64,000 nt of DNA. It comes from Terriglobia bacterium (GTDB lineage Bacteria > Acidobacteriota > Terriglobia > JAIQFV01). Shown here piece after piece: positions 1 through 53,256 of the stretch. The notes beneath the pieces were generated by a model. That model did no database searches. It saw nothing but the letters and a program-made list of their open reading frames with translations, and was not told where the DNA came from. A program made the position numbers and the translations under genes. The DNA lies in NCBI GenBank assembly GCA_041494885.1, contig JBGQBO010000007.1:68359-132358 (forward strand), in the 5' to 3' direction. The number at the start of each line of letters is the position of its first letter. The stretch's first letter is position 1.

Positions 1-2265
1 GTCAATGCCCTTCATGAAAGCATCGAGCAGGGCACCGGGGGCCTGAAAACCTTTCCAAAGATTGTGGGCGGCCGGTACGGATTGTCGTCCAAAGAATTCA
101 CCCCTGCCATGGTCAAGTCGGTCTTCGACAATCTCAAGGAGACCCGTCCGAAGAATCACTTCACCATCGGTATTCATGACGACGTTTCACATACCAGCCT
201 TTCCTTTGATCCCGAATTCTCAATCGAGCCGGAGAATGTGGTCCGTGCGCTCTTCTACGGTCTGGGATCGGACGGAACGGTGGGCGCCAATAAGAACTCC
301 ATCAAGATTATCGGTGAAAATACGGACAATTTTGCACAGGGTTACTTCGTGTACGACTCCAAGAAGGCGGGTGCGGTCACCGTGTCCCACCTGCGGTTCG
401 GTCCCAATCCAATCCGGTCCACTTACCTCGTCACGCAGGCCAATTTTGTGGGGTGCCACCAGCCTGTCTTTCTCGAGCGTTACGACATGCTGAAGGACAT
501 CGTCGAGGGAGGAACGTTTCTCCTGAATACCCCCTACGGCCCGGAAGAAGTCTGGAATGAGCTTCCTCGTACTGTTCAGCAACAGATCATTCAGAAGAAA
601 TTAAAGTTCTATGTGATCGATGCCGTCAAGGTGGCCCATGAGAGCGGGATGGGAGGGCGCATCAATACCGTTATGCAAGTGTGCTTTTTTGCCATCTCAA
701 AAGTCCTTCCCCGCGACGAGGCCCTGACTGCCATCATAGACTCTATTCAGAAGACCTATGGGAAGAAGGGTGATGAAATTGTCCAGATGAATCTGAAGGC
801 CATAGACCGGGCACTTGCCCACCTGTTCGAGGTCCACGTTCCTCAACACGCAGAAAGTCAGATCCAGTTGCCGCCTCCGGTCCCCAAGGAAGCACCGGAA
901 TTTGTCCAACAGGTCCTGGGAGAGATGATTGCGGGGCTTGGAGACGGTCTGCCGGTCAGCGCACTCCCCGCGGATGGCACCTATCCCACGGGGACTTCAA
1001 AGTGGGAGAAGCGGAACATCGCACTCGAAATCCCGGTGTGGGACCCCGCCGTGTGCATTCAGTGTGGCAAATGCGCGATGGTCTGTCCTCACAGCGTCAT
1101 TCGCATCAAAGCCTACGATCCAAAAATTCTTGAAGGCGCGCCGGCGACCTTTAAATCCAGCAACGCCGGGGACCGCGAGTGGAAGGATTTGAAATACACC
1201 ATTCAAGTGGCCCCGGAAGACTGCACGGGATGCGCCATCTGTGTGGACGTCTGTCCGGCCAAGAACAAATCGGAAACACGACTCAAAGCCATCAATATGG
1301 CGCCCCAGCCTCCCCTGCGGATTCCGGAGCGGGAGAACTGGGAATTCTTTTTGAAAATTCCAGAGATGGATCGCCGCCACATCAAGGTCTCAAGCCTCCG
1401 ACAGCAGCAGGTCCAGGAACCCCTGTTTGAGTTTTCAAGCGCCTGTGCAGGGTGCGGGGAAACCCCCTACCTCAAGTTGTTGACCCAATTGTTTGGCGAT
1501 CGCGCCCTGGTGGCCAACGCCACCGGCTGTTCCTCGATTTACGGCGGGAATCTGCCCACAACGCCCTGGACCAAGAATCTGGAGGGGCGTGGCCCCGCCT
1601 GGTCGAACTCGCTGTTTGAAGACAACGCCGAATTCGGGCTGGGCTTCCGGGTTTCCGTTGACAAGCAGAAAGAATTTGCGTCCGAACTGTTGAAAAAACT
1701 GGGGGGGAGCGTTGGAGAGGATTTGGCCACGGCCATTCTAACAGCTCAACAGAAAGACGAGGCGGATATCTACGAACAGCGGGGACGGATTGAGATCCTG
1801 AAAGAAAAACTTGAGCGCCTTAGCTCCGACGACGCCCGGCGGTTATTGTCGCTAGCCGACCTGCTGGTCAAAAAGAGTGTGTGGATTGTGGGTGGGGACG
1901 GATGGGCTTACGACATCGGCTTTGGGGGACTCGATCATGTTTTCGCGAGCGGCCGAAATGTCAATATCCTCGTCCTGGACACCGAAGTGTACTCCAACAC
2001 GGGGGGACAAATGTCCAAGGCTACTCCGCGCGCTGCTGTGGCCAAGTTTGCAGCCGGGGGAAAGCCCGTTGCCAAAAAAGATCTTGGTCTGATTGCCATG
2101 ACCTACGGCAGTGTTTACGTGGCCAGCGTGGCGATGGGCGCCAAGGATGAACACACCTTGAGGGCGTTTCTCGAAGCCGAGGCGTATGACGGCCCATCCT
2201 TGATCATCGCCTACAGCCATTGCATCGCCCATGGCATCAATATGACGACCGCCATGCACGACTAG
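1..2265 (+). CDS. nifJ: Pyruvate:ferredoxin (flavodoxin) oxidoreductase, 5'-partial (enters from upstream). The reading frame ends at an in-frame TAG at 2263-2265.
   Basis: The frame is open from nt 1. Translation shows two 4Fe-4S ferredoxin motifs (CIQCGKCAMVCP, CTGCAICVDVCP), the TPP-binding GDGWAYDIGFGG...LVLDTEVYSNTGGQ region, and a C-terminus ...AYSHCIAHGINM typical of NifJ/Por-type PFOR. Confidence 0.9.
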   Translation, partial: VNALHESIEQGTGGLKTFPKIVGGRYGLSSKEFTPAMVKSVFDNLKETRPKNHFTIGIHDDVSHTSLSFDPEFSIEPENVVRALFYGLGSDGTVGANKNSIKIIGENTDNFAQGYFVYDSKKAGAVTVSHLRFGPNPIRSTYLVTQANFVGCHQPVFLERYDMLKDIVEGGTFLLNTPYGPEEVWNELPRTVQQQIIQKKLKFYVIDAVKVAHESGMGGRINTVMQVCFFAISKVLPRDEALTAIIDSIQKTYGKKGDEIVQMNLKAIDRALAHLFEVHVPQHAESQIQLPPPVPKEAPEFVQQVLGEMIAGLGDGLPVSALPADGTYPTGTSKWEKRNIALEIPVWDPAVCIQCGKCAMVCPHSVIRIKAYDPKILEGAPATFKSSNAGDREWKDLKYTIQVAPEDCTGCAICVDVCPAKNKSETRLKAINMAPQPPLRIPERENWEFFLKIPEMDRRHIKVSSLRQQQVQEPLFEFSSACAGCGETPYLKLLTQLFGDRALVANATGCSSIYGGNLPTTPWTKNLEGRGPAWSNSLFEDNAEFGLGFRVSVDKQKEFASELLKKLGGSVGEDLATAILTAQQKDEADIYEQRGRIEILKEKLERLSSDDARRLLSLADLLVKKSVWIVGGDGWAYDIGFGGLDHVFASGRNVNILVLDTEVYSNTGGQMSKATPRAAVAKFAAGGKPVAKKDLGLIAMTYGSVYVASVAMGAKDEHTLRAFLEAEAYDGPSLIIAYSHCIAHGINMTTAMHD

Positions 2266-2532
2266 AAAGCCGCCGTCGATTCGGGACAGTGGCTGCTCTA
2301 TCGCTATCACCCCGATCGCGCGAAGCAGGGCGAGAATCCCATGATCCTCGACTCTCGGCCTCCCAAGATTCCCTTGCAGGATTATCTGTACATGGAAAAC
2401 AGATTCAAAATGCTGACCAAAATCAAACCCGATGAAGCAACCCGGTTGCTGAAGCGGGCTCAGGAAGACGTCCAGACACGCTGGCGCCTTTATGAGTACA
2501 TGGCGGCGAGGAAGGTGGAGAACAAAGTTTAA
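2266..2532 (+). other. In-frame continuation of the PFOR C-terminal domain after the TAG (KAAVDSGQWLLYRYHPD...YEYMAARKVENKV). It is either a readthrough or pseudogenised tail, or the TAG is a sequencing error.
   Basis: Same frame as the PFOR ORF. The translation matches the conserved PFOR C-terminal extension (..QQKAAVDSGYWPLYRYNP.. in characterised PFORs). The TAG sits where a Gln (CAG) is expected. Confidence 0.6.
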
Positions 2533-3136
2533 AGTTCAAAGTTCAAGGCTCAAAGTTAAGGGCTTACTGACCGGATGTTCAATGCTTCCAGGCGAGTCAT
2601 TTTGTCTCGTCAGCCGACTTTTTAGAGGCTCTGCAACGTGACAAAAATCGAGAGGTTTGAGGACATCGAGGCTTGGAAACGGGCAAGAGAGTTGGTGTCA
2701 GACATCTATCGAATTAGCTCGACGGGTAAGTTCAATAGGGATTTCTCACTTCGCGACCAGATGCGAAGTGCCTGCATCTCAATTCTGTCCAATATTGCAG
2801 AGGGCTTTGAACGAGGTGGAAACAGGGAGTTCTTACAGTTCCTCGCTTTCGCAAAGGGATCCGCCGGGGAGCTCAGGGCACAGCTTTATATAGCTCTGGA
2901 CCAACAATATATCGCTCACGATGAGTTCGAGAGAATCGCAGGTAAGATCATGGAAGTGAGCCGAATGCTTTCCGGCTTGATGAAATACCTGCAATCGTCG
3001 GAATTGCAAGGGACCAAATATAAATCGGTCTCTGAGCCGTAGAGGGAATTGTTTCTATTATGATTATTGAATCTCAAACTGGAACTTTGAACTAGGGGTT
3101 CCGACTTTGAACTTTGAACTTGGAACTTTGAACTCT
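2527..3136. repeat. Palindromic element 1. Inverted arrays of 7-bp tandem repeats (AAAGTTC units on the left, GAACTTT units on the right) flank a four-helix-bundle gene. It is inserted between PFOR and the DHOD-like gene.
   Basis: Left arm 2527-2560: aaagttcaaagttcaaggctcaaagtt. Right arm 3073-3136: ctggaactttgaactaggggttccgactttgaactttgaacttggaactttgaactc. This is its imperfect reverse complement. Confidence 0.8.
2638..3042 (+). CDS. Four-helix-bundle protein (PF05635 / TIGR02436, the 23S rRNA intervening-sequence protein family, Avd-like).
   Basis: 134-aa ORF with GTG start. Family-typical motifs are WKRARELVSDIYRIS, ...SNIAEGFERGGNREFLQFLAFAKGSAGELRAQLYIA. It lies between the inverted heptamer arrays. 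Confidence 0.8.
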   Translation: MTKIERFEDIEAWKRARELVSDIYRISSTGKFNRDFSLRDQMRSACISILSNIAEGFERGGNREFLQFLAFAKGSAGELRAQLYIALDQQYIAHDEFERIAGKIMEVSRMLSGLMKYLQSSELQGTKYKSVSEP

Positions 3137-3149
3137 TAGAGGAAAAACC

Positions 3150-4145
3150 ATGGACCTATCAACCACATATCTCGGCTTAAAACTCCGCACTCCGCTCGTT
3201 CCCTCGGCTTCGCCGCTTTCACAGGAGATTGACAACATCAAACGAATGGAGGACGCGGGCGCATCGGCGGTTGTCCTCCATTCGCTTTTTGAGGAGCAGT
3301 TGAGACAGGAGCGTTTTGAACTGCATCATCATCTCACCCAGGGGACCGAGAGTTTTGCTGAAGCCCTAACGTACTTCCCAGAGCCCGAAGAATTCCATCT
3401 CGGCCCCGATGCGTATCTGGAACACATCCGGAAGGCGAAAGAAGCCACCCGCATTCCCATCATTGCAAGCCTGAATGGAACCTCGGTCAGCGGTTGGACG
3501 GATTACGCCCGAAAGATAGAGGAGGCGGGGGCCGATGCCCTGGAATTGAACGTCTATTACATCCCCACCGATACGGATTTGAGTTCGGTTCAAGTCGAGC
3601 AAACCTACATTGATATCTTGAGGGCCGTCAAGTACGTCGTAAAAATCCCCGTGGCGTTCAAGCTGGGACCCTTCTTCAGCAACATGGCGAACATGGCCCG
3701 CCGCCTGGAGCAAGCCGGAGCCAACGGATTGGTTCTTTTCAATCGATTTTATCAACCGGACATCGACCTTGAAGAACTCGAAGTCAGGCCGAACGTCCTT
3801 TTGAGTACACCGCAGGCCCTGCGATTGCCGATGCGATGGATAGCGATCTTGTACGGACGTCTGCAATTGAGCTTTGCGGCTACCAGTGGCGTTCATGGCG
3901 CCCAGGATGCACTGAAAATGCTTATGGTCGGCGCCAGTGTGACCATGCTTTGCTCCGTTCTCTTCCGCGCGGGAATCGACCAGATCCGGACGATTGAGCA
4001 GGACATGCGTCAATGGATGGAAGACCACCAGTACGAATCGGTTCAACAGATGCAAGGGAGCATGAGCCAGAAGAATTGTGCCGATCCGGCCGCCTTCGAA
4101 CGTGCGCAGTACATGCGCGCTATCAAGAGCTATGTGCCGGCCTGA
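3150..4145 (+). CDS. Dihydroorotate dehydrogenase-like TIM-barrel flavoprotein (DHOD/DHPD family, function unassigned).
   Basis: 331-aa ORF with RBS ggaaaaacc before the ATG. Motifs RIPIIASLNG, ADALELNVYY, GVHGAQDALKMLMVGASVTMLCSVLF resemble class-1 DHOD-like proteins. It lies between PFOR and hypD. Confidence 0.55.
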   Translation: MDLSTTYLGLKLRTPLVPSASPLSQEIDNIKRMEDAGASAVVLHSLFEEQLRQERFELHHHLTQGTESFAEALTYFPEPEEFHLGPDAYLEHIRKAKEATRIPIIASLNGTSVSGWTDYARKIEEAGADALELNVYYIPTDTDLSSVQVEQTYIDILRAVKYVVKIPVAFKLGPFFSNMANMARRLEQAGANGLVLFNRFYQPDIDLEELEVRPNVLLSTPQALRLPMRWIAILYGRLQLSFAATSGVHGAQDALKMLMVGASVTMLCSVLFRAGIDQIRTIEQDMRQWMEDHQYESVQQMQGSMSQKNCADPAAFERAQYMRAIKSYVPA

Positions 4146-4281
4146 GAGACCTTTCGGAATGCCGTGGATCCCGGTGATTTCACCCGAATTGTAGAGCCCC
4201 GGGCAAGGGGTCGCTCGCGCCAGGAGAGGATGAACTCTCAATTCCCCGGTATATGGGAATGAGCCTGGCTGAGGGGGGGTT

Positions 4282-5400
4282 ATGAAATTCATCGATGAGT
4301 ACCGTGATCGCAAGGCAGCGGGGCAATTCTCGAAGGCGATTGCCAGCATGGCGACGAAGCCCTGGACGCTGATGGAGGTTTGCGGGGGCCAGACCCACTC
4401 CATCGTGAAGTTCGGCGTGGATGAATTACTCCCCAAAGACGTCACCCTGGTGCATGGTCCCGGCTGCCCGGTCTGTGTCACACCGGTCGAACTGATCGAA
4501 AAAGCGATCGAGATCGCCTCTCGCCCCGAGGTGATTTTTTGCTCCTTCGGCGACATGCTGCGCGTGCCTGCCCATGTGGGAAGTGGTCAGGAAGCTCCCG
4601 TTGATCTTCTTTCAATCAAGGCGAAGGGAGGCGATGTCCGGATCGTTTATTCCCCGCTGGATGCGATCAAGATTGCCAGCGCTCACCCCTCAAAGCAAGT
4701 CGTGTTCTTTGCGGTGGGATTTGAAACCACCGCCCCCGCTAATGCCATGGCCGTCTTCCAGGCCTACCAGCAAGGCATCGGGAATTTTTCACTCCTCGTT
4801 TCACACGTGCTGGTGCCCCCCGCGATGGAGGCCATCCTGTCTTCTCCGGACAATCGGGTGCAGGGATTTCTTGCGGCCGGACATGTGTGCACGGTGATGG
4901 GGTATACCGAGTACGAGCCCATTGCCAAAAAATATCACGTGCCCATCGTGGTCACAGGCTTCGAGCCGGTGGACATCCTGCAGGGCATCTACCTCTGCAT
5001 TAAGCAGTTGGAGGAGGGACGGGCAGAAGTGGAAAACCAATATGTCCGGGCCGTTCGTCGCGGAGGCAATCGGGCAGCGCAGCAGATCATTCACGAGGTG
5101 TTTCGAGTGGTGCCTCGCAAGTGGCGGGGCGTCGGCGAAATCCCTCAAAGCGGACTGGCTCTGCAGGAAAAATACGCTGAGTTTGACGCGGAACTTCGCT
5201 TTGGGGTCGCTCAACACACGACGGAAGAATCCACCGAATGTATCGCCGGCCTGGTTCTGCAAGGAATCAAGAAACCTCACGAATGCCCGGCCTTCGGCGC
5301 ACACTGCACGCCGGAACGCCCCCTGGGGGCACCCATGGTCTCCTCGGAGGGCGCCTGCGCGGCGTATTATCGATATCGTCGGCTTTCTTGCAGGAACTGA
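4282..5400 (+). CDS. hypD: [NiFe]-hydrogenase maturation factor HypD.
   Basis: 372-aa ORF with HypD signature motifs [14 protein letters not shown] and C-terminal [11 protein letters not shown]...EGACAAYY. Confidence 0.9.
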
Positions 5401-5429
5401 GAACGAAGCCGGAGACTGGAAAACGGAGG

Positions 5430-5982
5430 CCAGAAGTCAGAAGCCAGAAGTCGGAAGTCAGAGGTCGGAGGTCGGAAACCAGAAGTCAGAGGTCAGAGGT
5501 CAGAGAAAGAACCAATCTCTTTACCAGGGTGGGAAATAAGAAAGGACATTGATAAAATCATACAAGGATCTCCATGTGTATCAACTTTCGTATCGCCTTG
5601 CCATGAAGGTATTCATCGCGTCGAAAGGATTTCCCAAGGACGAATTGAATTCTCTGACGAATCAAATACGTCGGTCTTCTCGGTCGGTCGCGGCTAACAT
5701 AGTAGAGGGGTGGGCAAAACGGGGGTTCGAAAACATATTTAAGCGTCACCTGATCGATTCATTTGGATCTTGCGCCGAAACAAAACTCTGGCTGGATTTT
5801 GCTCGCGACTGCAACTACCTTTCGAGGGATGATCACTCAACGCTCGAGGGGGAATATGAAGAGTTGAGCAAAATGCTTCACCGTCTTTTTGAAAGCTGGG
5901 AAACCTACAATGTTAAGTAGTTCCCTTCCCCAGAATCCCTCAGTTGAGGGTCGGACTTCTGACTTCCGACCTCTGACTTCGG
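5430..5982. repeat. Palindromic element 2. Inverted arrays of 7-bp tandem repeats (CAGAAGT/CAGAGGT, about 11 units, on the left; GACTTCT/GACCTCT, about 4 units, on the right) flank a second four-helix-bundle gene. It is inserted between hypD and hypE.
   Basis: Left arm 5430-5505: ccagaagtcagaagccagaagtcggaagtcagaggtcggaggtcggaaaccagaagtcagaggtcagaggtcagag. Right arm 5949-5982: ggtcggacttctgacttccgacctctgacttcgg. This is its reverse complement. Confidence 0.8.
5549..5920 (+). CDS. Four-helix-bundle protein (PF05635 / 23S rRNA IVS protein family), second copy.
   Basis: 123-aa ORF with TTG start and RBS aaagga. Motifs YQLSYRLAMKVF, ...RSSRSVAANIVEGWAKRG...FGSCAETKLWLDFA. Confidence 0.8.
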   Translation: MIKSYKDLHVYQLSYRLAMKVFIASKGFPKDELNSLTNQIRRSSRSVAANIVEGWAKRGFENIFKRHLIDSFGSCAETKLWLDFARDCNYLSRDDHSTLEGEYEELSKMLHRLFESWETYNVK

Positions 5983-6007
5983 CCCCGATACGTCCAGCCC
6001 TTCGTCC

Positions 6008-7111
6008 TTGGAGCACGCATCCATGAACCCTAAGGACTCCCAGTTCGCCCTTTCCTGTCCCATCCCTCTCTCCGACTACCCGACTGTTCTGCTGGCTCAT
6101 GGAGGCGGGGGGAAGTTGATGCATCAGCTCATTGAAAAAATGTTTGTCAGCACTTTTGCAAATCCCCTTCTTGAATCGCGGCATGACGGGGCTGTCATTG
6201 AATTGGAGCAAAACGTAAAGCAGGGATTTCCCCGCCTGGCATTTACGACAGATTCTTACGTCGTGCATCCGCTTTTCTTTCCGGGCGGAGACATCGCTAC
6301 ACTGGCAGTCAATGGCACCGTTAACGATCTCGCGATGTGCGGCGCCCGCCCGTTGTACCTAAGTGCGGGTTTCATTCTTGAAGAGGGCCTCCCCATGGAA
6401 ACCCTGTGGCGGGTCGTCCGTTCCATGCGGGAGGCAGCGGATCTGGCCAGGGTACAAGTGGTGACGGGGGACACCAAGGTGGTCGATCGAGGCAAGGGGG
6501 ACGGCATTTTCATCAATACGGCCGGGATCGGAATAATCGAGCACAAGCGATCGATCAGCCCGGCCAATGTTCAACCGGGAGATGTGCTTCTCCTCAATGG
6601 AGACCTGGGCCGACATGGAATTGCGATCATGGCGGTCCGCGAAGGGCTCGAATTTGAGTCGGCGATTGAAAGCGATTGTGCTCCCCTCGCCCGCCCGGTT
6701 CTGGCGCTGCTCGACGCGGGAATCGAGGTGCACTGCATGCGAGATCTGACGCGCGGAGGTCTTGCCAGCGCCCTCGTGGAAATTTCAGAAGCCGGCGGTC
6801 TCAACATCCAGATCGATGAGAATGCCATCCCGGTTCGAGAAGACGTTCAGGGAGCCTGCGAGATCCTCGGGTTCGATCCTCTTTACGTCGCCAACGAGGG
6901 AAGGTTCGTCGCCTTCCTCGCACCATCCGATGCCGACCGCGCCCTGACTCTTCTTCGTGCCCATCCCCTCGGCGAGGGAGCATGTATCATCGGGAAGGTT
7001 GCGGCGACGAACGGCTCGTCCCGTGGAGGCCTCGTGACCATGAGAAGTAAAATTGGCGTTCTTCGTATTGTCGACATGATGAGCGGCGAGCAGCTGCCGA
7101 GAATTTGTTGA
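6008..7111 (+). CDS. hypE: Hydrogenase maturation carbamoyl dehydratase HypE.
   Basis: 367-aa [11 protein letters not shown] near the N-terminus, AIR-synthase-like domains, and the C-terminus ends with the HypE-specific PRIC. Confidence 0.9.
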
Positions 7112-11403: not shown

Positions 11404-12825
11404 ATGTCAAAACAAAACCATGGAATCATCCTCACCCTGGCCCTTTTAGCTTTGAGTTTGACCGCTCGGCCCCTGGTTGCCCAAACCTCCAGCCATGCGG
11501 AATCGCCCGTTTCGAAGAACCTTTTGACGCCGCGGCTCCCGGATCTTGCTCAATCGGCGGGGACAACCTCGAGCCTATCCCCTTCGAACAAAGACGCCCA
11601 ATACAATGTTCCCCCCGAGGAACTCTCGCCAAAGTCGGAGTCCGTCCTCCGTCTCCAGGATCTCATTGCGGAAGCATTGTCGAATAATCCGGAGATCCAG
11701 GCTGCGGAGCGAATGGTGGATTCGAAGCGGGCGGTCCCGCCGCAGCAGCGCTCACTTCCCGACCCCATGATTTCAGGCGGATGGATGGGCAATATTGTCC
11801 CGCCTTTTTCCATTCAGACGGGCGACCCCTCCAGCGCCCGGGTGCTGAGCCTTTCCCAGGAAATTCCTTTCCCGGGAAAGTTGGCGCTCCGGGGCCGTAT
11901 AGCGGACACAGAGGCTGATGCAGAACGGTGGAACTATGAGCGGACGAAATGGGCGGTCATTTCCAATCTCAAGCAGACCTATTACGATCTGGCTTTCATC
12001 GAGAAATCCATCCAGACGGTCGAAAAGGACAAAGACCTTCTCGAAAAACTGGCAAAGATCGCTGAGGTGCGCTATTCCGTAGGCAAAGGAATGCAGCAGG
12101 ACGTTATCCGGGCCCAGGTGGAAGTTTCCAAGCTCTTGGAGCGGTTGACGCTTCTGGAACAACGCAAAGGCGTCGCTGAAGCAATGCTCCGCAGCATTCT
12201 TTATCGTCCCCCTGACGCACCCCTGGGGGTTCCTGCCGAGGTCACAAAAGCAGAAGTTCCCTACTCGCTCACCGAACTCGAAGGCATCGCGGAGGCCAAT
12301 GCGCCTGATATGAAATCTCAGGAGCGGGAAATCGATAGGAACCAACTGGCCCTGAGCCTCGCAAGAAAAGACTACTACCCGGACTTCGGTGTCGGGTTCA
12401 CCTACTTCAACCGGCCTCAAATGCCGGAAATGTATGGGGTCAATTTCACTGCAAAAATCCCGCTCTACTTCTGGAAGAAGCAGCGATATGGCGTGGAGGA
12501 AGCGGCCTCTGGACTGGTCAGTTCAAAGAAGCGGACCGAAGCCGTCAAAGCCAACCTCTTTTTTAAGGTGAAGGACCAATACCTGGCCATGAAGGCTTCT
12601 GAACGACTGATGGACCTTTACTCGAAAGCCATTGTGCCCCAATCGACCCTGGCGCTCGACTCATCGCTCTCGGGTTACCAGGTAGGAAATATCGACTTTC
12701 TCAGCATGCTCAGCAATTTCCTGACCGTGCTTGATTACGAACTGAATTACTACGATTCCCTGACCAATTACCAGAAAGCGGTGGCCCGGCTCGAGGAAGT
12801 CGCAGGCACCGTTCTTTCAAAGTAG
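11404..12825 (+). CDS. czcC: TolC-family outer membrane efflux protein (CzcC/CusC-like), set 1.
   Basis: 473-aa ORF with a signal peptide and two OEP repeats. It is the first gene of a C-B-A operon whose stop/start codons overlap. Confidence 0.8.
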   Translation: MSKQNHGIILTLALLALSLTARPLVAQTSSHAESPVSKNLLTPRLPDLAQSAGTTSSLSPSNKDAQYNVPPEELSPKSESVLRLQDLIAEALSNNPEIQAAERMVDSKRAVPPQQRSLPDPMISGGWMGNIVPPFSIQTGDPSSARVLSLSQEIPFPGKLALRGRIADTEADAERWNYERTKWAVISNLKQTYYDLAFIEKSIQTVEKDKDLLEKLAKIAEVRYSVGKGMQQDVIRAQVEVSKLLERLTLLEQRKGVAEAMLRSILYRPPDAPLGVPAEVTKAEVPYSLTELEGIAEANAPDMKSQEREIDRNQLALSLARKDYYPDFGVGFTYFNRPQMPEMYGVNFTAKIPLYFWKKQRYGVEEAASGLVSSKKRTEAVKANLFFKVKDQYLAMKASERLMDLYSKAIVPQSTLALDSSLSGYQVGNIDFLSMLSNFLTVLDYELNYYDSLTNYQKAVARLEEVAGTVLSK

Positions 12826-12843
12826 CATAGCAAGGAGACGAGC

Positions 12844-14577
12844 ATGTTCTTAAACAAATCAAAGGGTCTTTTCATTTTATTCATTGTGGTCGCGCTGGCG
12901 GGCGCCTACTGGGTCCACGCCCGCGGTTATTTCGTTTTTCCCGTACGTCAAAGCTCGGATCCGCAGCAGCCGGTCTCCAAGGCGCCGGGTGAACGAAAAA
13001 TCCTCTACTGGGTCGATGCGATGAATCCGGCGCACAAATCCGACCGGCCTGGAAAGGCGCCCGACGGCATGGATCTCGTCCCGGTTTATGCTGAAGGTGA
13101 GAGGGCGACGGTGACGAGTAAACGAAAAATCCTCTACTGGGTGGATCCCATGCATCCCGCTTACAAATCCGACAAGCCCGGCACGGCCCCCGATTGCGGC
13201 ATGACTTTGGTCCCGGTGTATGCCGACGGCGGTGGAGAATCGGTCGGCGACAATCTACCCCCTGGCGCCGTTAAGATCTCAGCGACCAAACAACAGTTGA
13301 TCGGGGTACAGTTCGGTCAGGTTCAATATGGCCCGGTGGAGAGGACCATCCGTGCTGTCGGCCACATCGCCTTTGACGAGACAAAAATAGTCCGCGTTCA
13401 TACAAAAATTTCAGGCTGGATCGACAAGGTTTTCGTGGATTACACCGGACAATTGGTGAAAAAAGGCCAGCCGTTGTTCACGGTGTACTCCCCCGATCTC
13501 GTCTCCACTCAGGAAGAGTTCCTGATCGGTCTCAAAGCGAAACAATATTTGAGCGACAGCCAGTTCAAGGACGTCTCCATGGGGGCGCAGAGCCTTTACA
13601 ACGCATCCCGCCGACGGTTGCAGCTTTGGGACATCAGTGACAAACAAATTGAAGAACTCGAAAGAACCCAAAAACCGATGCGGGATATGACCCTCTACGC
13701 ACCTGATGACGGCTTCGTGACCAAGCGGAATGCCTTTCCTAAACAGCAAGTGAACCCCGACACGGAAGTTTACGAGCTCGCGGATCTTTCCACCATTTGG
13801 GTGCTCGCAGACGTTTATGAATACGAGCTTCCTGAAGTCAAACTCGGCCAGACGGCCAGAGTCAATCTCACCTACTTCCCGGGAAAGATCTTTGCCGGCA
13901 AAGTCTCTTACATTTATCCTGAAGTCGACAACACCACCCGCACCGCGAAAATCCGCATCGAGCTACCGAACGCGGACTTCCGGCTGAAACCCGACATGTA
14001 CGCCAGCGTGGAGTTGCAATTAAATTATGGCAAGCAGCTTTCCGTTCCTCAAGAAGCGGTGCTGGATTCAGGCACTGAGCAGACCGTTTTTGTCGCCCTG
14101 GGAAACGGCTATTTCGAGCCCCGCAAAGTCCAAGTGGGCGCCAAGGTCGACAATCGATACATTGTGCTCTCGGGACTGAAGCCGCAGGAAAATGTTGTCA
14201 CGTCCGGCAATTTCCTGATTGATTCGGAAAGCCAGTTGAAATCGGCCGTGGCAGCCATGGCGGGGATGCCGGGAATGAGCCAGGGAGAGCAAGGTGGTAA
14301 GCGAACGCAGAATCCGCAAGAACCGATGGCTCCGAAGCTGGGGTTGAGTCCCGCCCCACAGGAGCCAACCACTCCGACGGATCACTCCCAGCCTCCGATG
14401 AACAAACCCGCGAGTCCGCCGAAGAAATCGGCTCCCAAATCCTTATCCGGGATCGATCATTCCAAACACCCAATGGGAGGAGTGGATCATTCCGGGCACG
14501 AGCAGAAGTCATCAGGAAGCAGACACGCGGGACCTGCTGCCTCGACTAAGAAGAAACCGGCGGAGGATAAACAATGA
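12844..14577 (+). CDS. czcB: Heavy-metal efflux RND periplasmic adaptor (CzcB/CusB-like). It has two tandem degenerate N-terminal metal-binding-domain repeats and a His-rich C-terminal tail.
   Basis: 577-aa ORF with an HlyD/MFP core. The N-terminus has RKILYWVDAMNPAHKSDRPGKAPDGMDLVPVYA and RKILYWVDPMHPAYKSDKPGTAPDCGMTLVPVYA. The C-terminus has HSKHPMGGVDHSGHEQ. Confidence 0.85.
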   Translation: MFLNKSKGLFILFIVVALAGAYWVHARGYFVFPVRQSSDPQQPVSKAPGERKILYWVDAMNPAHKSDRPGKAPDGMDLVPVYAEGERATVTSKRKILYWVDPMHPAYKSDKPGTAPDCGMTLVPVYADGGGESVGDNLPPGAVKISATKQQLIGVQFGQVQYGPVERTIRAVGHIAFDETKIVRVHTKISGWIDKVFVDYTGQLVKKGQPLFTVYSPDLVSTQEEFLIGLKAKQYLSDSQFKDVSMGAQSLYNASRRRLQLWDISDKQIEELERTQKPMRDMTLYAPDDGFVTKRNAFPKQQVNPDTEVYELADLSTIWVLADVYEYELPEVKLGQTARVNLTYFPGKIFAGKVSYIYPEVDNTTRTAKIRIELPNADFRLKPDMYASVELQLNYGKQLSVPQEAVLDSGTEQTVFVALGNGYFEPRKVQVGAKVDNRYIVLSGLKPQENVVTSGNFLIDSESQLKSAVAAMAGMPGMSQGEQGGKRTQNPQEPMAPKLGLSPAPQEPTTPTDHSQPPMNKPASPPKKSAPKSLSGIDHSKHPMGGVDHSGHEQKSSGSRHAGPAASTKKKPAEDKQ

Positions 14578-17500
14578 TTAACAAGGTCATTGAAGCCTGC
14601 GCTCACAACAAATTCATCGTGTTCCTCCTCATCGGCATGGCCGTGCTGGCTGGTCTCTATTCGATGAAGAACATCACGCTCGATGCGATCCCGGATTTGT
14701 CGGACACACAAGTCATCATTTACTCACGCTGGGACCGAAGCCCGGACATCATGGAAGATCAGGTGACCTACCCGATCATTTCGGCGATGCTGGGGGTTCC
14801 TAAGGTCAAAGACATTCGTGGTTTTTCCGACTTCGGCTATTCCTACGTCTACATCATCTTCGAAGACGGCACCGACATCTACTGGGCTCGTTCGCGCACC
14901 CTGGAATACTTGAGCAACATCCTGCCCCGTCTGCCCCAGGGGGTGAACGTGGAATTAGCGCGCGATGAGACGGCGGTGGGATGGGTGTTTGAATATGCGC
15001 TGGTGGACAAGACTGGACAGAACAACCTGGCGCAGTTGCGGAGCTTCCAGGATTGGTATCTGCGCTATGCGCTCCAGGCAGTTCCCGGTGTTGCGGAAGT
15101 TGCTCCGATCGGCGGATTTGTCAAACAATACCAGGTCAACATCGATCCCAACGCGCTGTTGGCGTATGACATTCCCATAGACCGCGTCGTGCAGGCCGTG
15201 CGTCAAGGAAACAACGATGTCGGTGGCCGGCTGGTTGAGTTTTCCGGCCGTGAATACATGGTGCGCGGGCGTGGTTATATCAAGAAACTCGCAGACGTCG
15301 AAAACGTTGTCGTGGGGACAAGTAAACAAGGTGGAACTCCCATCCTGATCAAAAACCTGGGGACCGTGACTCTCGGCCCTGACATCCGGCGCGGCATCGC
15401 TGAACTGGATGGCGAGGGAGAGACCGTAGGCGCCGTGGTCATCATGCGCTATGGCGAAAATGCCTTGAAGGTGATCGAGAGGGTCCGGACCAAGCTTGAA
15501 GAGATGAAGGCGTCTCTGCCGCCGGGCGTCGAGATCGTGACCACCTATGATCGCGCGGAACTGATTCAACGCGCTATCGAGACCCTCAAAGGAACGCTGA
15601 TTGAAGAACTGACTATCGTCAGCATCGTTATTATGATCTTTCTCTGGCACATCCCCTCCGCCTTAGTCCCCATCGTCACGATTCCGATCACCATCATCAT
15701 CTCGTTTGTTCCGATGTACGCGATGGGACTGACCGCAAACATTATGAGTCTTGGGGGCATCGCGATCGCCATTGGCGCCATGGTCGATGCGGCCATTGTG
15801 GTCGTCGAGCAGACCCACAAGAAACTGGAGCACTGGGATACGGAAGGCCGCCATGGCAGCTACAAAGACGTCGTCATCGGCGCCGTGAAAGAGGTCGGTG
15901 GGCCGAGTTTCTTCGCCTTGCTGGTCATCGCTGTCGCCTTCATTCCCGTCTTCACGCTTCAAGGACAGGAAGGCCGGCTGTTCAAACCTCTCGCCTACAC
16001 GAAAAACTTTTCGATGGCCATTGCGGCTTTTCTTGCCATCACGCTTGACCCGGCGATCCGGTTACTGTTCACTCACATGGATCCTTACAAGTTTAAGCCC
16101 CGGTTCCTGGCCCGCATCGTCAATGCCGTGATGGTCGGCAAAATCCACAGCGAAGAGACGCACCCCATCAGCCGGCCGCTGATGAAACTCTATCATCCGG
16201 TCTGCGAATTTGTGCTGAGGTTTAAGTGGTTTGTGGTTGTGGCGGCGGTCCTCACGGTCGTCTTGACGATCCCGGTGTTCGAGAAACTCGGCTCAGAGTT
16301 CATGCCGCCGTTGAACGAAGGGGTGCTTCTCTACATGCCCACGACCTTGCCCGGCATGTCGGTCACTCAGAGTGCGCAATTGCTCCAGATCCAGGACAAG
16401 GTGCTCAAGAGCTTCCCCGAAGTGGAGCGCGTGTTTGGTAAGGCGGGACGTGCTGAGACCGCTACGGATCCTGCCCCTTTTTCAATGATGGAGACCGTCG
16501 TTGTGCTCAAGCCGGAATCCGAGTGGCCCAAGGTGCCGCAGTGGTATTCGTCCTGGGCGCCGAACTGGCTGCAAAATATCCTTCGGAAAGCATGGCCCGA
16601 CCATAAGCGGGTGGAAGATCTCATCTATGGACCCGGTGATTTGAATGAAGCCATGCAATTTCCCGGCGCCGTGAACGCGTGGACCATGCCCATTAAGGCC
16701 CGCGTGGACATGCTCACAACCGGGGTCCGCACACCCATCGGCATTAAGATCATGGGCGCCGATTTGGCGAAGGTGCAGGAGATCGGCGAGCACATTGAGA
16801 TAATTCTGCAAAAAGTGGGAGGCACGAAGAGCGTCTTCGCAGAGCGTACCGCGGGTGGTTACTTCCTGGATTTTGATCTCAAGCGGGAGCAACTTGCCCG
16901 TTACGGGATGACGATCGATCAGGCCAACGATGTCGTGATGTCGGCCATTGGGGGGGAAAACATAACGACGACGGTTGAAGGCCGCGAGCGCTATCCTGTC
17001 AACGTCCGATATATGCGTGACTATCGCAGCGACTTAAACCTCTTGGGACGTACCCTGGTCATGGCGCCTAACGGAACACAGATTCCTATCGCGCAGATCG
17101 CAGACATCAAAATGGTGACCGGTCCGGGAATGATTCGCGATGAAAACGGACGCTTGTCCGGCTATGTGTACGTCGATCTCGACACCACGAAGCGGGACAT
17201 CGGTGGTTACGTCGCGGATGCCAAGAAGGCTATCCGGTCCGAAGTACAACTTCCGCCCGGTTATCAATTGATCTGGAGCGGACAGTTCGAATACATGGAG
17301 CTTGCCAAGCAGCGCCTCTTTGTGGTGGTTCCCATCACGATCTTTGTGATTATCATGCTGCTCTACTTCAACACCCGTTCGATGACCAAGACCCTGATCA
17401 TCCTGGTGGCAGTCCCATTCTCCGCCGTTGGAGCGATCTGGTTCCTGTACTTCCTGGGATACAACATGAGCATCGCGGTATGGGTCGGACTGATTGCGTT

Positions 17501-17876
17501 GATGGGTGTGGACGCCGAGACGGGCATGTTCATGCTCCTGTACCTCGAGATCGCCTACCACGAAGCCCAAGCGAAGGGACTGATGAGGAACAAGGAAGAC
17601 TTGAAGGAGGCCATCCTGCACGGCGCGGTGAAGCGTCTCCGGCCCAAGGTGATGACGGTCGGGGTGATGTTCATGGGGCTCGTACCCATTATGTGGTCAA
17701 CCGGTAGTGGTGCTGATGTCATGAAACGCATCGCCGCGCCAATGATTGGAGGCATTTTCACCTCGTTTCTTCTGGAGCTGGCCGTCTATCCGGCCATCTA
17801 CGAGATCTGGAAGTGGTACTCCGAGGTGAGAAACAATTCCATCGCCGGCGCTGAACCCCCGGTGGTCACGAGTTAA
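14574..17876 (+). CDS. czcA: Heavy-metal efflux RND permease (HME family, CzcA/CusA-like), set 1.
   Basis: 1100-aa ORF with 12-TM AcrB/CzcA architecture. Its start overlaps the czcB stop. Confidence 0.9.
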   Translation: MINKVIEACAHNKFIVFLLIGMAVLAGLYSMKNITLDAIPDLSDTQVIIYSRWDRSPDIMEDQVTYPIISAMLGVPKVKDIRGFSDFGYSYVYIIFEDGTDIYWARSRTLEYLSNILPRLPQGVNVELARDETAVGWVFEYALVDKTGQNNLAQLRSFQDWYLRYALQAVPGVAEVAPIGGFVKQYQVNIDPNALLAYDIPIDRVVQAVRQGNNDVGGRLVEFSGREYMVRGRGYIKKLADVENVVVGTSKQGGTPILIKNLGTVTLGPDIRRGIAELDGEGETVGAVVIMRYGENALKVIERVRTKLEEMKASLPPGVEIVTTYDRAELIQRAIETLKGTLIEELTIVSIVIMIFLWHIPSALVPIVTIPITIIISFVPMYAMGLTANIMSLGGIAIAIGAMVDAAIVVVEQTHKKLEHWDTEGRHGSYKDVVIGAVKEVGGPSFFALLVIAVAFIPVFTLQGQEGRLFKPLAYTKNFSMAIAAFLAITLDPAIRLLFTHMDPYKFKPRFLARIVNAVMVGKIHSEETHPISRPLMKLYHPVCEFVLRFKWFVVVAAVLTVVLTIPVFEKLGSEFMPPLNEGVLLYMPTTLPGMSVTQSAQLLQIQDKVLKSFPEVERVFGKAGRAETATDPAPFSMMETVVVLKPESEWPKVPQWYSSWAPNWLQNILRKAWPDHKRVEDLIYGPGDLNEAMQFPGAVNAWTMPIKARVDMLTTGVRTPIGIKIMGADLAKVQEIGEHIEIILQKVGGTKSVFAERTAGGYFLDFDLKREQLARYGMTIDQANDVVMSAIGGENITTTVEGRERYPVNVRYMRDYRSDLNLLGRTLVMAPNGTQIPIAQIADIKMVTGPGMIRDENGRLSGYVYVDLDTTKRDIGGYVADAKKAIRSEVQLPPGYQLIWSGQFEYMELAKQRLFVVVPITIFVIIMLLYFNTRSMTKTLIILVAVPFSAVGAIWFLYFLGYNMSIAVWVGLIALMGVDAETGMFMLLYLEIAYHEAQAKGLMRNKEDLKEAILHGAVKRLRPKVMTVGVMFMGLVPIMWSTGSGADVMKRIAAPMIGGIFTSFLLELAVYPAIYEIWKWYSEVRNNSIAGAEPPVVTS

Positions 17877-17891
17877 GGAAGGATCGCTGTC

Positions 17892-19100
17892 TTGCCCTTT
17901 GTCCCCATTGCAGCCATCGCTGTTGGAACCATCGCCTTGCTGGTGAGCGGGCGCTCGGCTCTGAAGTTAGGCGTGAGTCAGGCGGCCGGGTTGAGCTTCG
18001 GCTTGTGTGCGATCGCCGTGGCTGTGGCGCTGATTCCGAATGAATGGCGTATGTGGCTGGGAGGCGACGCAACAGGCGATCACCTCCTGACATATGTCCG
18101 CGGAGTGGGATTAACCGGATTATTGTTTCTTGCGGGGTTGCGGCTCCATTCGGAGGAACCCCGCCGGGCAGGGCAAATCTGCTTCTTCGCGACGGGTATG
18201 AGCGCGTTGGGAGGAGTGGTGGCGATTCTGGTGTTGATGAAACTTGCGCGAGCAGAAGCCGGGCCGGCCGTGTTAATGACCGCAGCAATGCTCGGCTCAA
18301 GTGTGTGGATTGCTGGCGAGTTGTCATTCCACCCCGCGAACCCAGCAGCCAAGTCCATCGCATCCGCAAGAATCGCGTCCAGTTCGGTGATTTGTTTCTG
18401 GATCCTGGTTGTGCACTTTTTCTCGATTTTTCAAGAACTCGGTGCCAGACATGCGTCCCGATCCGCATTCCTAGTGGTCGGAAGCTATGAGCTGTTGAAA
18501 TGGGTGCTCTTCTTTGCTTCGGCTTATTGGATAGGGGCCCGGTTGCTCAGTCGCGCAGAAGTTCGGCCAAGGGCATGGTCTGCCTCCCCCCGCTTCCTGC
18601 TCTTTGCGGTTTTGGCCTTCGGTTTTGCTGTGTTTGCGCTTGGCCAGCTCGGAGCCTTCGCGTGGGCTTATCTGGCCGGTGCTCTCTTTAACCGAATCAA
18701 GACAGGAACAGAACTCAGCGAAAGCCGGCATCCCTTGAGCAATGCGCTCCTCGTTTGCTTTATCTTCCTTCCGATGTTCCTGCAGTCTCATGGGAGGAGA
18801 GTGACCGGTGTGGGGATACTTCTGGTCGTCGTGGGCCTTGTCCTACTGACTAAATTCGGTCTCATGAGATCGGTTGCACTATGGGGGGGCGATTCCCCAA
18901 GTGAGGCAAATGTCTTCGCTTCTGCAACCATGGCCTCCGGAGAGATGGCAATCATGTTTCTTGGATTTGGCATGACAAAATGGCTCATCGACGGCCCCAC
19001 TTACTTTGCCATACTCGCTTTTGCATTGCTATCGATCCTGCTCGGCCCCGTTCTTCTTCAATTCACAGGCCGGCAGAAAGATATTCTGGTTAGCTCATGA
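17892..19100 (+). CDS. Polytopic membrane protein, cation:proton antiporter-like (about 11-12 TM).
   Basis: 402-aa ORF with TTG start directly after czcA. It is almost entirely hydrophobic helices. It is not a CDF (CzcD) architecture. Confidence 0.45.
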   Translation: MPFVPIAAIAVGTIALLVSGRSALKLGVSQAAGLSFGLCAIAVAVALIPNEWRMWLGGDATGDHLLTYVRGVGLTGLLFLAGLRLHSEEPRRAGQICFFATGMSALGGVVAILVLMKLARAEAGPAVLMTAAMLGSSVWIAGELSFHPANPAAKSIASARIASSSVICFWILVVHFFSIFQELGARHASRSAFLVVGSYELLKWVLFFASAYWIGARLLSRAEVRPRAWSASPRFLLFAVLAFGFAVFALGQLGAFAWAYLAGALFNRIKTGTELSESRHPLSNALLVCFIFLPMFLQSHGRRVTGVGILLVVVGLVLLTKFGLMRSVALWGGDSPSEANVFASATMASGEMAIMFLGFGMTKWLIDGPTYFAILAFALLSILLGPVLLQFTGRQKDILVSS

Positions 19101-19304
19101 ATCCTGTGGAAACGGCGGAACAACTGGAAAGCAAACAATGAAAAAAGAGAGAGTGTTAACCCTTTCATAATCTGAGGTAGGCTGAGTTCGCGCCTTCAAG
19201 CAAATTGATTCTGGCTTATCACATGATGTAGCCTGATCTGAATCAGACCAGTTTGTATTGAACGATAATACAGCAGCATCTGCAGGACAGTTGGAGGAAA
19301 AGCC

Positions 19305-19814
19305 ATGTCCCTAAAGAGAGTGATTTCAGTCCTGGTCTTAGTTCTGATTGTTGTGGCAGCATTGTCGTTGTATGTCATGGAGAAACGGAGGCTTTCCGCC
19401 GCCATCTGTCGCGCCTGCGGCCGGGAAATTCACAGCGAATGGGCCTTCATGCTCGGGCTCAAGAACGGAAAACAGGAAAGGTTGTGCTGCGCCAAGTGTG
19501 GAATCCTTGAACAATTGCAGATGCAGCCGCAGGTCGCCTCGGCAATAGCAACCGATTATGCCACTGGAAGATCTGTTCAGGCTGAAAAGGCCGTTTACTT
19601 GTGGAACTCCGACCTTGAGCATTGTGCCATGCCCCAAAAGAGGGAATGGGCGGATCCACGACCCATGGACCTTACCTTCGACCGCTGCTTTCCGAGTTTG
19701 GTTGCATTTGAGAGCCGTGATGAGGCCGCAAGGTTTAAGGCCGACCATGGCGGGACGCTTGTTGATTACAGTGAAAGCATTCGACTGGCGAAATCGCTGC
19801 CAGCGAATCCCTGA
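19305..19814 (+). CDS. Membrane-anchored TRASH-domain (CxxC-x21-CxxxC) protein, a putative metal-trafficking protein.
   Basis: 169-aa ORF with an N-terminal TM helix, then CRAC...(21 aa)...CCAKC matching the TRASH/YHS-like zinc-ribbon spacing. The C-terminal tail is ...LVAFESRDEAARFKADHGGTLVDYSE. Confidence 0.5.
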   Translation: MSLKRVISVLVLVLIVVAALSLYVMEKRRLSAAICRACGREIHSEWAFMLGLKNGKQERLCCAKCGILEQLQMQPQVASAIATDYATGRSVQAEKAVYLWNSDLEHCAMPQKREWADPRPMDLTFDRCFPSLVAFESRDEAARFKADHGGTLVDYSESIRLAKSLPANP

Positions 19815-19832
19815 GGAAAAGGAGAAGGAAAG

Positions 19833-20621
19833 ATGTTCTTAAAGCTCATGAAAGAGAACCGGTCCAGTCCGCTGTGCGTTTGCGGCCTGCCACAGGTACT
19901 GGGGTTGCTGACTTTTTTCTTGCTGGCAGCGGATTCTGTTTCGTTCGGCGAAGAGTTCACGCTCAGGGCAAAACACGATCATCTGAAAGGAAGCTGCAGC
20001 GGAGAACTCACCGTCAGCGATAACGGAATTCGCTATCAAACGACCCATCTCCAGGATCAACGCCAATGGGCCTTCGCAGACATTCAGGAGGTACAGATTA
20101 TCAGCGAAAAGAAGCTGAACGTGATTAGTTACGAGGATTCACGAAAACGCCTGGGGGGCGATAAGATATTCAAATTCGAATTGCAGGGAGAAACTCTCCC
20201 CCCCACTCTGATCGCTTTGGTCGAGTCGAAGTTTTCAAAACCCATTTCCAATCGCATGGCTGCCCAGAATCTCAAGGGTCAATTCGAGATTCCTGTGAAG
20301 CATTTGCATCGCGTCGGTGGGTGTCAGGGCAAACTCATCATCACGGAAATTGGCATCTCTTTTGTCAGCGAGAAACCGAGGGAATCCCGGCAGTGGCGCT
20401 ACAGCGATCTTCAGACCGTTGCCTCCACAGAGCGATACGAATTACGGCTGGGAACTTATGAGCACGGACCGCTGCAATATGGCGACACCAAGGAATTTCG
20501 ATTCCAATTGAAAGAGCCATTGAGCGAAGTGGCCTATCGATCCCTGTGGGCTCGAATCAATCAGCTTCCCCCATGGAGACCCGAGGGGAGCGGCAAGTTT
20601 GAAGGAAACAACGAACAGTGA
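19833..20621 (+). CDS. Secreted hypothetical protein made of two tandem homologous domains of about 100 aa each.
   Basis: 262-aa ORF with a signal peptide. Internal repeat: LRAKHDHLKGSCSGELTVSDNGIRYQT...QWAFADIQEV versus IPVKHLHRVGGCQGKLIITEIGISFVSEKPRESRQWRYSDLQTV. Confidence 0.5.
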   Translation: MFLKLMKENRSSPLCVCGLPQVLGLLTFFLLAADSVSFGEEFTLRAKHDHLKGSCSGELTVSDNGIRYQTTHLQDQRQWAFADIQEVQIISEKKLNVISYEDSRKRLGGDKIFKFELQGETLPPTLIALVESKFSKPISNRMAAQNLKGQFEIPVKHLHRVGGCQGKLIITEIGISFVSEKPRESRQWRYSDLQTVASTERYELRLGTYEHGPLQYGDTKEFRFQLKEPLSEVAYRSLWARINQLPPWRPEGSGKFEGNNEQ

Positions 20622-20704
20622 AACAGCGTGAGTGACCAAGGGTCAGTGCTCAGTTGTCCACCCATTGCGGATCACATCAGTGGTTGAGAAGGGCCAGAGA
20701 AACA

Positions 20705-21814
20705 ATGACCTTAATTAAAAAAGCCCAATCCGGAAAAGTCAGGCGCCACGGCGCGGGGTGCAACGTCCTGGGTCTTCTTTTGGAAGCCACAGTGATCTTG
20801 TTGGCCTTTTCTTCATTCCTGCTCGCACAATCGCCAAACAGAGACTCGAATCTTGGACGAATGACCCCGCTGCTTTCCGAAGTCGAAGCAGGAATTAACC
20901 GTGCGGCTCTTGCAGCCCAGGCTCTTCAAAATGCCGTACCGCTGATTGAAGCAGCGCGGTCACAGCTGTCCCGAGGAAAACGGAAGGAGGCTCTAGCCAC
21001 CTTCCAGAAGGCCCAGTCCATGATTCAGGATTCCCCGCAATTCGCCTTGGACGCCGTATTGCTCCGGTCGTTTTCCGCTGATCTCAACCGGATCATCAGC
21101 GCCATCCCCTCCCATCGAGCGGCACCGGATGAGCCCCCCGATGATTCTTTGGTCGTGGACGAATTACAGCGCATGATCCAGCAATACATCGCTTATTACC
21201 AAGGAAAAGGCCGAGCTCAAATGGTCGCATCCTGGCAACGAATGAAGAATTACCAGCCCACTGTGGAATCAGTCCTGCATGAAAAAAATCTTCCCACAGA
21301 ATTGATGTACCTTGGCATTGTCGAGAGCGGGTTCAACCGGTTCGCACGATCAAAGAAGCAGGCGCGAGGGATTTGGCAGTTTGTTCCCGCAACGGCCAGG
21401 CGTTATGGGCTGGAACAAAGCGGAGGCTATGACGAGCGCACGGACCCTCTCAAATCGACGGTAGCAGCCGCCGAGTACCTGGAAGACCTCTACGCCTCTT
21501 TTGGGGACTGGTATCTTGCGTTGGCGGCTTACAACGCCGGAGAAGGTCGTATTCAGTCCATCATTTCCCGCACCGGCATCCGCGACTTTTGGCAAATGAG
21601 CCGGTTGAAGCTGTTACCGCAGGAAACTATCAATTACGTTCCTGCCGTCCTGGCGACTGTCGCCATTGCCCGCGATCCGGAGAAATTCGGGTTCGTGGGG
21701 TCTTCTCCCCTATTAAGCTTAGGAACCAGCATGAAAAAGCACGCCCCTAATTTCATTTTTGCCAAGGCCTCCTTCACACAATCGGAGGCACCGGAGGACG
21801 ATGACATACAGTGA
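20705..21814 (+). CDS. Lytic transglycosylase (SLT domain) with an N-terminal signal/anchor region.
   Basis: SLT catalytic region [34 protein letters not shown] and AYNAGEGR. The ORF could start at 20654 or 20705. Confidence 0.8.
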
Positions 21815-21908
21815 AGCGGCGCTGGACTCCCTACCCCACATCATCCGTGATCAACAAATCCGTGAGTCTCATTTGACCGATCAAAATCACTAGAATGCAG
21901 AGTATTAT

Positions 21909-24599: not shown

Positions 24600-24766
24600 C
24601 AAAAGACGATCAGTCCCTACCATGTCTGCAGCCTTCAAGAATGCGGGTTCAAGAGGTTCGCCCCTGCTCAAAGCACGCCTTTTTCTTTAGAAAGGAAGGC
24701 GAGTTGGAACTCCTTATGGATTTCCACTCGCCCAAATGACCTGCTCTATCCTTCAATCCCAACCCG

Positions 24767-25216
24767 TCATGGTTTTTCGACGATATCGCTCTTCATGGGA
24801 CCCAGCAGGCCCAGCAGTTCATTTTTTTCCTTCTCGGGCACCTTGAACTTGTCGAGCGCCCCTACCAAATCCTCGACGAGGGCGCCGAAGTCAGCGGTGG
24901 ACACCCCCATCCCGGCATGAGCTGTTTTCATATCTTTTCCCGTGTATTTGCAGGGCCCGCCAGCTGCTGAGCAAATTTGATCGACTAGCTCCATCTTGAG
25001 ATGGGCGATGTCCGTGTGTCCAAAAAAAGAGTTGATGCGGTTGTCCGCAGCCACCCGCCCCACAAACTCGTCCACCACTGCAGTGATTGCCGGTTTACCG
25101 CCGAGTCGGTCGTACAAAGATTTCCCCTTCATCGCTTCTTTGGGTGCGGCCGACAGGATTGTCACCATCCCCATTACCAACATCGTCATTACCCATTTCT
25201 TTAAAACCCCTTGCAT
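24767..25216 (-). CDS. glbN: Truncated hemoglobin (group I trHb/GlbN family) with a predicted N-terminal signal peptide.
   Basis: ATG at 25216 is preceded by a perfect [42 protein letters not shown] is the trHb signature. The N-terminus is [25 protein letters not shown]. Confidence 0.8.
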
Positions 25217-44017: not shown

Positions 44018-44101
44018 TGGGTGGGGCGCGGCCCGCTTGGTCATCCACCGCGGCCGGGACCGGGAGGCTTCCCTGGGCCTCGCGTTCCAGAGAAAACATC
44101 T

Positions 44102-50542: not shown

Positions 50543-50684
50543 GTCGACTGGGATCGGCAGCGATTCGCAAAAGCCGTTTGCCATCGTCATCGTCGGCGGA
50601 ATGATCTCCCGCGTTTCTGTCCATCTTTCTGGCCCCCGTGCTGTATGCGCTGGTCGCCCGGAAGGACGATGTCCTGAAGGTGTA
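50543..50684 (+). pseudogene. Orphan duplicated 3' end of a czcA gene (about 142 bp, roughly 88% identical to 47041-47185, with an indel that frameshifts it).
   Basis: gtcgactgggatcggcagcgattcgcaaaagcc(g/a)tttgccatcgt(c/t)atcgtcggcggaatgatctcccgc... ending ..gatgtcctgaaggtgtag. It translates to ..STGIGSDSQKPFAIVIVGGMISR and then shifts frame. Confidence 0.8.
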
Positions 50685-50844
50685 GTTGATGCAGGAAAAC
50701 ATCGGATCCTTGTCACCTTGAAGCGGACAATCCTATTCATCCCTCAATTGGCCCTTTGCACCTCCGTGCAGCCTTCATGAGCCAATGGTATAATGCCCCT
50801 TCAATTCAGTTTACATGTGACTTTACAAGCATAAGGAGCCTCTC

Positions 50845-53139: not shown

Positions 53140-53256
53140 GACGCGCCGGAAGGGGGCGATTCTGCGAGCTGGAGAAGTGTATGAGAGACAACAACCTCGA
53201 AGTCCTTTGATGAATCAAAGTGATCAGTGCCATTGAAAGGAATCAGGGCTTAGCTT

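Follow-up and report, generated by a model that had tools for sequence, protein, structure and literature searches.

A private amber codon near the 3′ end of the PFOR gene in a Terriglobia MAG: nonsense allele or single-base error

The stretch of DNA analysed here (the window, 64 kb) opens inside the gene for a pyruvate:ferredoxin oxidoreductase (PFOR), of which it holds the C-terminal 843 codons; the 5′ end of the gene lies outside. PFOR is embedded in a NiFe-hydrogenase maturation cluster (window positions 1–7111; 1–13962 in contigs L001–L003 of the same lineage, described below), in the order hypA, hypB (cobW), hypF, hypC, PFOR, IVP protein, DHO_dh-family protein, hypD, a second IVP protein and hypE (AIRS). 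This neighbourhood is unusual for a PFOR, and it hints at a functional link of pyruvate oxidation or ferredoxin to hydrogen metabolism. The two 23S_rRNA_IVP genes (PF05635; 2638–3042 and 5549–5920), which display weak bAvd-like matches, are situated between PFOR and hyp genes. The second of them encodes 126 aa in L001, L002, L004 and L005 and 114 aa in L003 and L006. The segment around it (5507–6043) does not align with L001, L002, L004 or L005, and it looks like a strain-variable cassette.

Elsewhere in the window, metal-efflux genes are concentrated at 11404–17876, 21909–24599 and 42806–47185. The first set comprises an outer-membrane efflux protein (OEP), a CusB-like fusion protein with heavy-metal-binding domains and then a 1100-aa ORF (putative pump); the gene at 21909–24599 encodes a P-type ATPase with YHS and HMBD domains; the last set is a second pair of fusion protein and AcrB. 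Two convergent ORFs (54564–56603 on the forward and 56924–58963 on the reverse strand) are each exactly 679 aa long and unrelated to each other (BLASTP E = 6). One carries a Fer4/CCG domain, and the other displays only a weak, sub-threshold match to the DUF772 transposase domain.

Translation of the window in frame 1 of the forward strand gives ...HCIAHGINMTTAMHD, an in-frame TAG, and KAAVDSGQWLLYRYHPD... The residues before the stop end in ...AYSHCIAHGINMTTAMHD, and the frame runs on behind it for 88 sense codons to a TAA, or 89 codons with one of the two stops included. The position and the translation that a first, sequence-only reading had given for this interrupted frame are correct. The normal allele reads ...TAMHD-Q-KAAVDSGQWLLYR across the site. 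The TAG is a single transition away from CAG (Gln), and the stop cuts 7% from the protein. The coordinates are listed in Table 1. The heptamer CAAAGTT is present in about five tandem copies at 2523–2557, a repeat that spans the true PFOR stop and reaches into the intergenic region.

Table 1. Parts of the PFOR gene within the window, by window position
Feature	Positions	Strand	Remarks
PFOR coding sequence upstream of the TAG	1–2262	+	codons 362–1115 of 1204; the first 361 codons are outside the window
Amber codon TAG, Gln-1116 (CAG) in all other assemblies	2263–2265	+	C to T at base 2263
C-terminal end of PFOR domain VI, 88 codons severed by the TAG	2266–2529	+	base-identical to the intact genes of L003 and L006
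Ancestral PFOR stop TAA	2530–2532	+	genes called in L001–L003 stop here; position 9383 in L003

The identity of the gene was established by homology on both sides of the stop. The Pfam families recorded on the 1204-aa product of L001–L003 are POR_N, PFOR_II, POR, EKR, Fer4 (two-ferredoxin domain) and TPP_enzyme_C. Domains I–VI thus lie in one chain, as in a single-polypeptide PFOR of the OFOR superfamily, and the homology with solved structures runs from end to end (6CIN, 1B0P and 7PLM, all E = 0); in the window copy, the unbroken frame for a full domain VI is lost at codon 1116. A 304-residue query across the site, with X at the stop, retrieved thousands of PFOR matches, and all figures given here for columns and identities refer to the best 120 of these. 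The best 120 cover 95–100% of the query (98–100% in nearly all) at 71–82% identity, and the named taxa among them are Blastocatellia, Candidatus Sulfotelmatobacter and other Acidobacteriota. In the column under the TAG, Gln is found in 117 of these 120 homologues and His in the remaining 3. The 88-residue tail displays a mean identity of 62% to the best 120 homologues, and it aligns with the solved PFOR structures as far as their C-termini. Since homologues and structures align through it, the frame after the TAG is true PFOR sequence and no chance open frame.

Relatives of the window were located by the exact product of the neighbouring 331-aa gene (3150–4145), which yielded six contigs of the same lineage: two JGI metagenome contigs (3300053057, 3300053058), two NCBI MAG contigs (GCA_041490505.1, GCA_041484385.1) and two Logan contigs (SRR29604879, SRR29604912). 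PFOR is called intact, with 1204 aa, in three of the six (L001–L003). A pattern scan of one genome per species added one further relative, the Terriglobia MAG L007, which is 94.5% identical to the window and reads CAG. CAG is likewise present in L001, L002 and L004, each about 99% identical to the window. The closest contigs are L003 (JGI 3300053058, a 146-kb contig) and L006 (Logan SRR29604912), where base 2263, C in L003 and T in the window, is the sole mismatch over 14,145 nt and 4,155 nt, respectively. Altogether, the codon is CAG in 6 of 6 other public assemblies of this Terriglobia lineage, which are 94.5–100% identical elsewhere. The comparison with close relatives that the sequence-only reading had proposed hence turned out uniform, inclusive of two assemblies otherwise identical over tens of kb, and its expectation of Gln (CAG) in place of the TAG is borne out by these assemblies and by the homologues.

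Two more Logan contigs of SRR29604912 extend the comparison within the strain: one covers 15993–24260 with a single difference, at 19122, and the other covers 50546–64000 with none. Against the four same-strain contigs (JGI 3300053058 and Logan SRR29604912), the window therefore displays 2 substitutions in 35.9 kb and no indels, namely base 2263 and the intergenic base 19122 (A in the window, C in Logan contig L010), which lies between a gene ending at 19100 and a gene starting at 19305. Two scans of metagenome contigs with site-spanning patterns (Y at 2263) returned no match. An exact-sequence look-up of the truncated 1115-aa product in a public protein collection found one entry, which belongs to a 154,775-nt NCBI contig that carries no annotation. 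The T does therefore sit in a deposited MAG, and the window most probably stems from this contig. The sequence for this look-up was built from L003, and the N-terminal 361 codons beyond the window are accordingly intact as well. The 90% cluster of the truncated product has seven other members, all of full length (1201–1204 aa).

The TAG might mark an established pseudogene, in which PFOR was inactivated, fixed in the lineage and left to decay. An in-frame stop that takes 7% off the protein would suit such a case. However, no further lesion is present: positions 1–2262 agree fully with the L003 gene, whose intact product has 1204 aa, all 1115 residues before the stop match the L003 protein exactly, and the 88 codons after it display zero base differences from the intact L003 and L006 genes. 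Same-strain assemblies moreover read CAG. A decaying pseudogene, recognizable by several lesions or by relaxed constraint past the stop, was thus rejected. There has been no time for decay, which excludes inactivation of long standing, and we regard this explanation as very unlikely. In the comparison with L007, the tail differs by 12 synonymous codons and 1 nonsynonymous codon, and the upstream part by 76 and 15, respectively; judged from these sequences, the PFOR tail is under purifying selection in the relatives. Relaxation of the tail was also considered on the basis of identity to distant homologues, which is 80% upstream and 62% downstream of the site. This gap is uninformative about relaxation, because pairs of homologues display the same trend (84% versus 73%) and because the tail in the window is identical to that of the intact allele.

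A functional split of the gene was considered next to inactivation. In this case, the 1115-aa enzyme would reassemble with a separately initiated C-terminal fragment, for which an in-frame ATG at 2341 opens an ORF of 63 codons (2341–2532). The fragment would miss 25 residues of the tail, its 63-aa product is not on record by exact look-up, no relative displays such an arrangement, and, read by eye, the sequence ahead of 2341 has no obvious ribosome-binding site. We therefore give the split next to no credence.

On the other hand, the TAG might be decoded, by programmed readthrough, by an amber-suppressor tRNA that inserts Gln, by reassignment of TAG or as pyrrolysine, and a full-length PFOR would then be made. 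The perfectly intact frame downstream would be in line with this, and UAG can occasionally be misread by near-cognate tRNA-Gln, an event that would restore the wild-type residue. Against decoding, the stop occurs in none of the 6 lineage assemblies and in none of the best 120 homologues, and no gene of the window other than PFOR is split. The residue expected at the site is Gln and the context is not one of pyrrolysine; with Gln as the ancestral residue, pyrrolysine is implausible.

The use of TAG in the remainder of the window tells the same story for the genetic code. TAG terminates 8 of the 43 genes called at near-identical loci. The sequence-only reading had pointed to TAG as an ordinary stop of several other genes when it called reassignment unlikely, and this judgement is supported. 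Pfam profiles are complete before the TAG in the two 23S_rRNA_IVP proteins, the outer-membrane efflux protein, the P-type ATPase and the membrane-fusion protein, and the in-frame continuation past the TAG of the P-type ATPase (24600–24917) has no Pfam match. A six-frame scan of the window for frames broken by one stop revealed no other gene with homology continuing across. Two same-frame TAG junctions were inspected as candidates and proved to be ordinary neighbours: an OEP followed by a membrane-fusion protein (11404–12825 / 12844–14577), and a membrane-fusion protein followed by an AcrB-type pump (42806–44017 / 44021–47185). The 64-kb window contains no tRNA gene, and consequently neither a tRNA with a CUA anticodon nor pylT. 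Reassignment or suppression would be expected to leave TAG rare as a terminator and in-frame TAGs in many genes, and neither is found here. Code reassignment and pyrrolysine were rejected on the use of TAG as a terminator, the profiles completed before it and the lack of a tRNA gene in the window. Programmed readthrough, which the sequence-only reading had listed among its options, was rejected as well: no relative shares the stop, the RNA from just before the TAG onward (2257–2350, 94 nt) folds no better than shuffled sequences (z = −0.49), the window matches no Rfam family, and it holds no suppressor tRNA. Decoding of the TAG in any of these forms appears extremely improbable.

Two of the options raised at the outset are left standing: a nonsense mutation of very recent date, and an error of assembly or sequencing. 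Based on these comparisons of sequence, we conclude that the TAG is an ordinary single-base nonsense change or a sequence error, private to one deposited assembly, with nothing programmed about it. Our favoured reading, at roughly even odds (probability about 0.5), sees in the T a genuine allele that either arose very recently or is of low frequency in the sampled Terriglobia population. A private C-to-T transition at base 2263 would have turned Gln-1116 (CAG) of the single-polypeptide PFOR into an amber stop, and one assembler would have carried the T allele into the deposited MAG contig. Ribosomes would stop at codon 1116 and release a PFOR of 1115 residues, in which the TPP-binding domain VI would be short of its final 89 residues. 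Such a protein would probably be unstable or inactive and presumably without function. The normal PFOR gene of the population is the intact form of 1204 codons. If the change is real, it would have to be new, since the tail is base-identical to the intact allele and has had no time for decay.

A sister case bears on the question whether the T is real. Between NCBI MAG contig L002 and JGI contig L001, 28 of 20,995 bases differ, and L001 is identical to Logan contig L005. Nine of these differences can be checked against a third strain, and at 8 of the 9, L002 carries the allele of strain L003. Differences between assemblies are hence mostly real strain polymorphism in this material. The sister case, together with a clean assembly free of indels, favours T-carrying reads, the existence of which we infer for the data behind the deposited MAG. 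C-to-T is, in addition, the commonest spontaneous transition. However, the T is a singleton, and two assemblies of what seems to be the same sample lack it. Purifying selection acts on the gene, in which the T would be strongly deleterious, and the data agree almost as well with an error of sequencing or consensus.

Such an error, whether of sequencing, consensus or polishing, would be confined to one MAG assembly, and the organism would have CAG and a full-length PFOR. We consider this a serious possibility, if somewhat short of even odds. It would account for a singleton at a base that is C in six other assemblies, inclusive of the JGI and Logan ones otherwise identical to the window, for the lack of secondary decay of any kind, and for a change that would disable a strongly conserved gene. 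The second NCBI MAG contig, L002, carries a private missense change of its own in the same gene, which might indicate a class of C:G-to-T:A artefacts in these MAG assemblies. On the other hand, the assembly is otherwise extremely clean, with only the 2 substitutions and no indels in 35.9 kb, and the differences between assemblies in the sister case are mostly genuine strain alleles. De Bruijn graph assemblers, moreover, seldom emit bases that are absent from the reads.

The change in L002 is described here as an observation in its own right. At position 7987 of this contig (GCA_041490505.1), which corresponds to window position 1136, a private G-to-A converts GGC to GAC (Gly to Asp) and is absent from L001 and L003. 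It is a second private C:G-to-T:A change in PFOR, and the MAG apparently belongs to the same deposit series, as its accession number is a neighbouring one.

A genuine T allele might also be kept in a subpopulation and still yield a useful amount of full-length PFOR if UAG is read as Gln by a suppressor or near-cognate tRNA-Gln. We rate this version as extremely doubtful; if true, it would represent a natural, tolerated amber leakiness in an enzyme of central metabolism of Terriglobia.

The biological weight of the finding is little, and its practical value is that of an annotation warning: the PFOR of this MAG should be counted neither as a loss nor as a pseudogene or a recoded gene. This soil-type Terriglobia lineage carries an intact PFOR gene of 1204 codons within a hyp cluster. 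A real T would be an example of a natural population in which a transient loss-of-function allele segregates, and a spurious T would amount to one wrong base in a deposited MAG. The change is ordinary in kind, with no signal of recoding or readthrough. A single C-to-T at a CAG codon, private, with no other lesions and with intact conspecifics, is what ordinary nonsense polymorphisms or consensus errors in MAGs look like, and no feature sets the change in the window apart from them.

Comparison with solved structures defines what the stop removes. Gln-1116 is located 14 residues past Cys-1102 of the motif AYSHCIAHG, and this cysteine aligns with Cys1071 of the Desulfovibrio (Desulfocurvibacter) africanus enzyme, a residue that binds the proximal [4Fe-4S] cluster as its fourth Cys ligand. 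A truncated product would accordingly keep all cofactor ligands and lose the last 89 residues of domain VI. The PFOR of Moorella thermoacetica (6CIN) aligns with the intact 1204-aa allele at residues 5–1169 versus 24–1196 (E = 0). Both share the domain order I–VI, and neither has a domain VII. The tail after the TAG aligns to residues 1090–1169 of 1171 in 6CIN, and the codon of the TAG corresponds to Ala-1089 in Moorella, whereas Gln is present in this clade.

The D. africanus enzyme (1B0P, 7PLM) is homologous over domains I–VI (query 22–1200 versus chain 4–1170, E = 0), and the tail aligns to about residues 1088–1170 of 1B0P. In this enzyme, domain VI comprises residues 786–1170, followed by a domain-swapping domain VII (1171–1232) with a disulfide between Cys1195 and Cys1212 (PMC8945911). 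Domain VII is linked to oxygen stability, and of the solved PFORs, the D. africanus enzyme is described as the only one to have it (PMC12337175). It has no counterpart in the PFOR of the window: the alignment stops at chain position 1170–1171, the query ends 4 residues later, and the extension of about 60 residues past domain VI with its Cys1195–Cys1212 pair is absent. As the alignment ends at residue 1170–1171 in D. africanus and at 1169 in Moorella, the residues behind the TAG form the final portion of domain VI, and domain VII is missing. The sequence-only reading had taken this segment for the conserved C-terminal extension that contributes to oxygen stability in D. africanus. The conserved C-terminal PFOR sequence stands, and the attribution is corrected: the segment closes the core TPP-binding domain VI and is distinct from the oxygen-protective extension. 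In the four-subunit PFOR of Methanosarcina (9BT4 chain C), the tail segment is conserved in a separate beta subunit, where it aligns up to residue 276 of 296. Conservation even in a separate subunit places the tail within the core fold of the enzyme.
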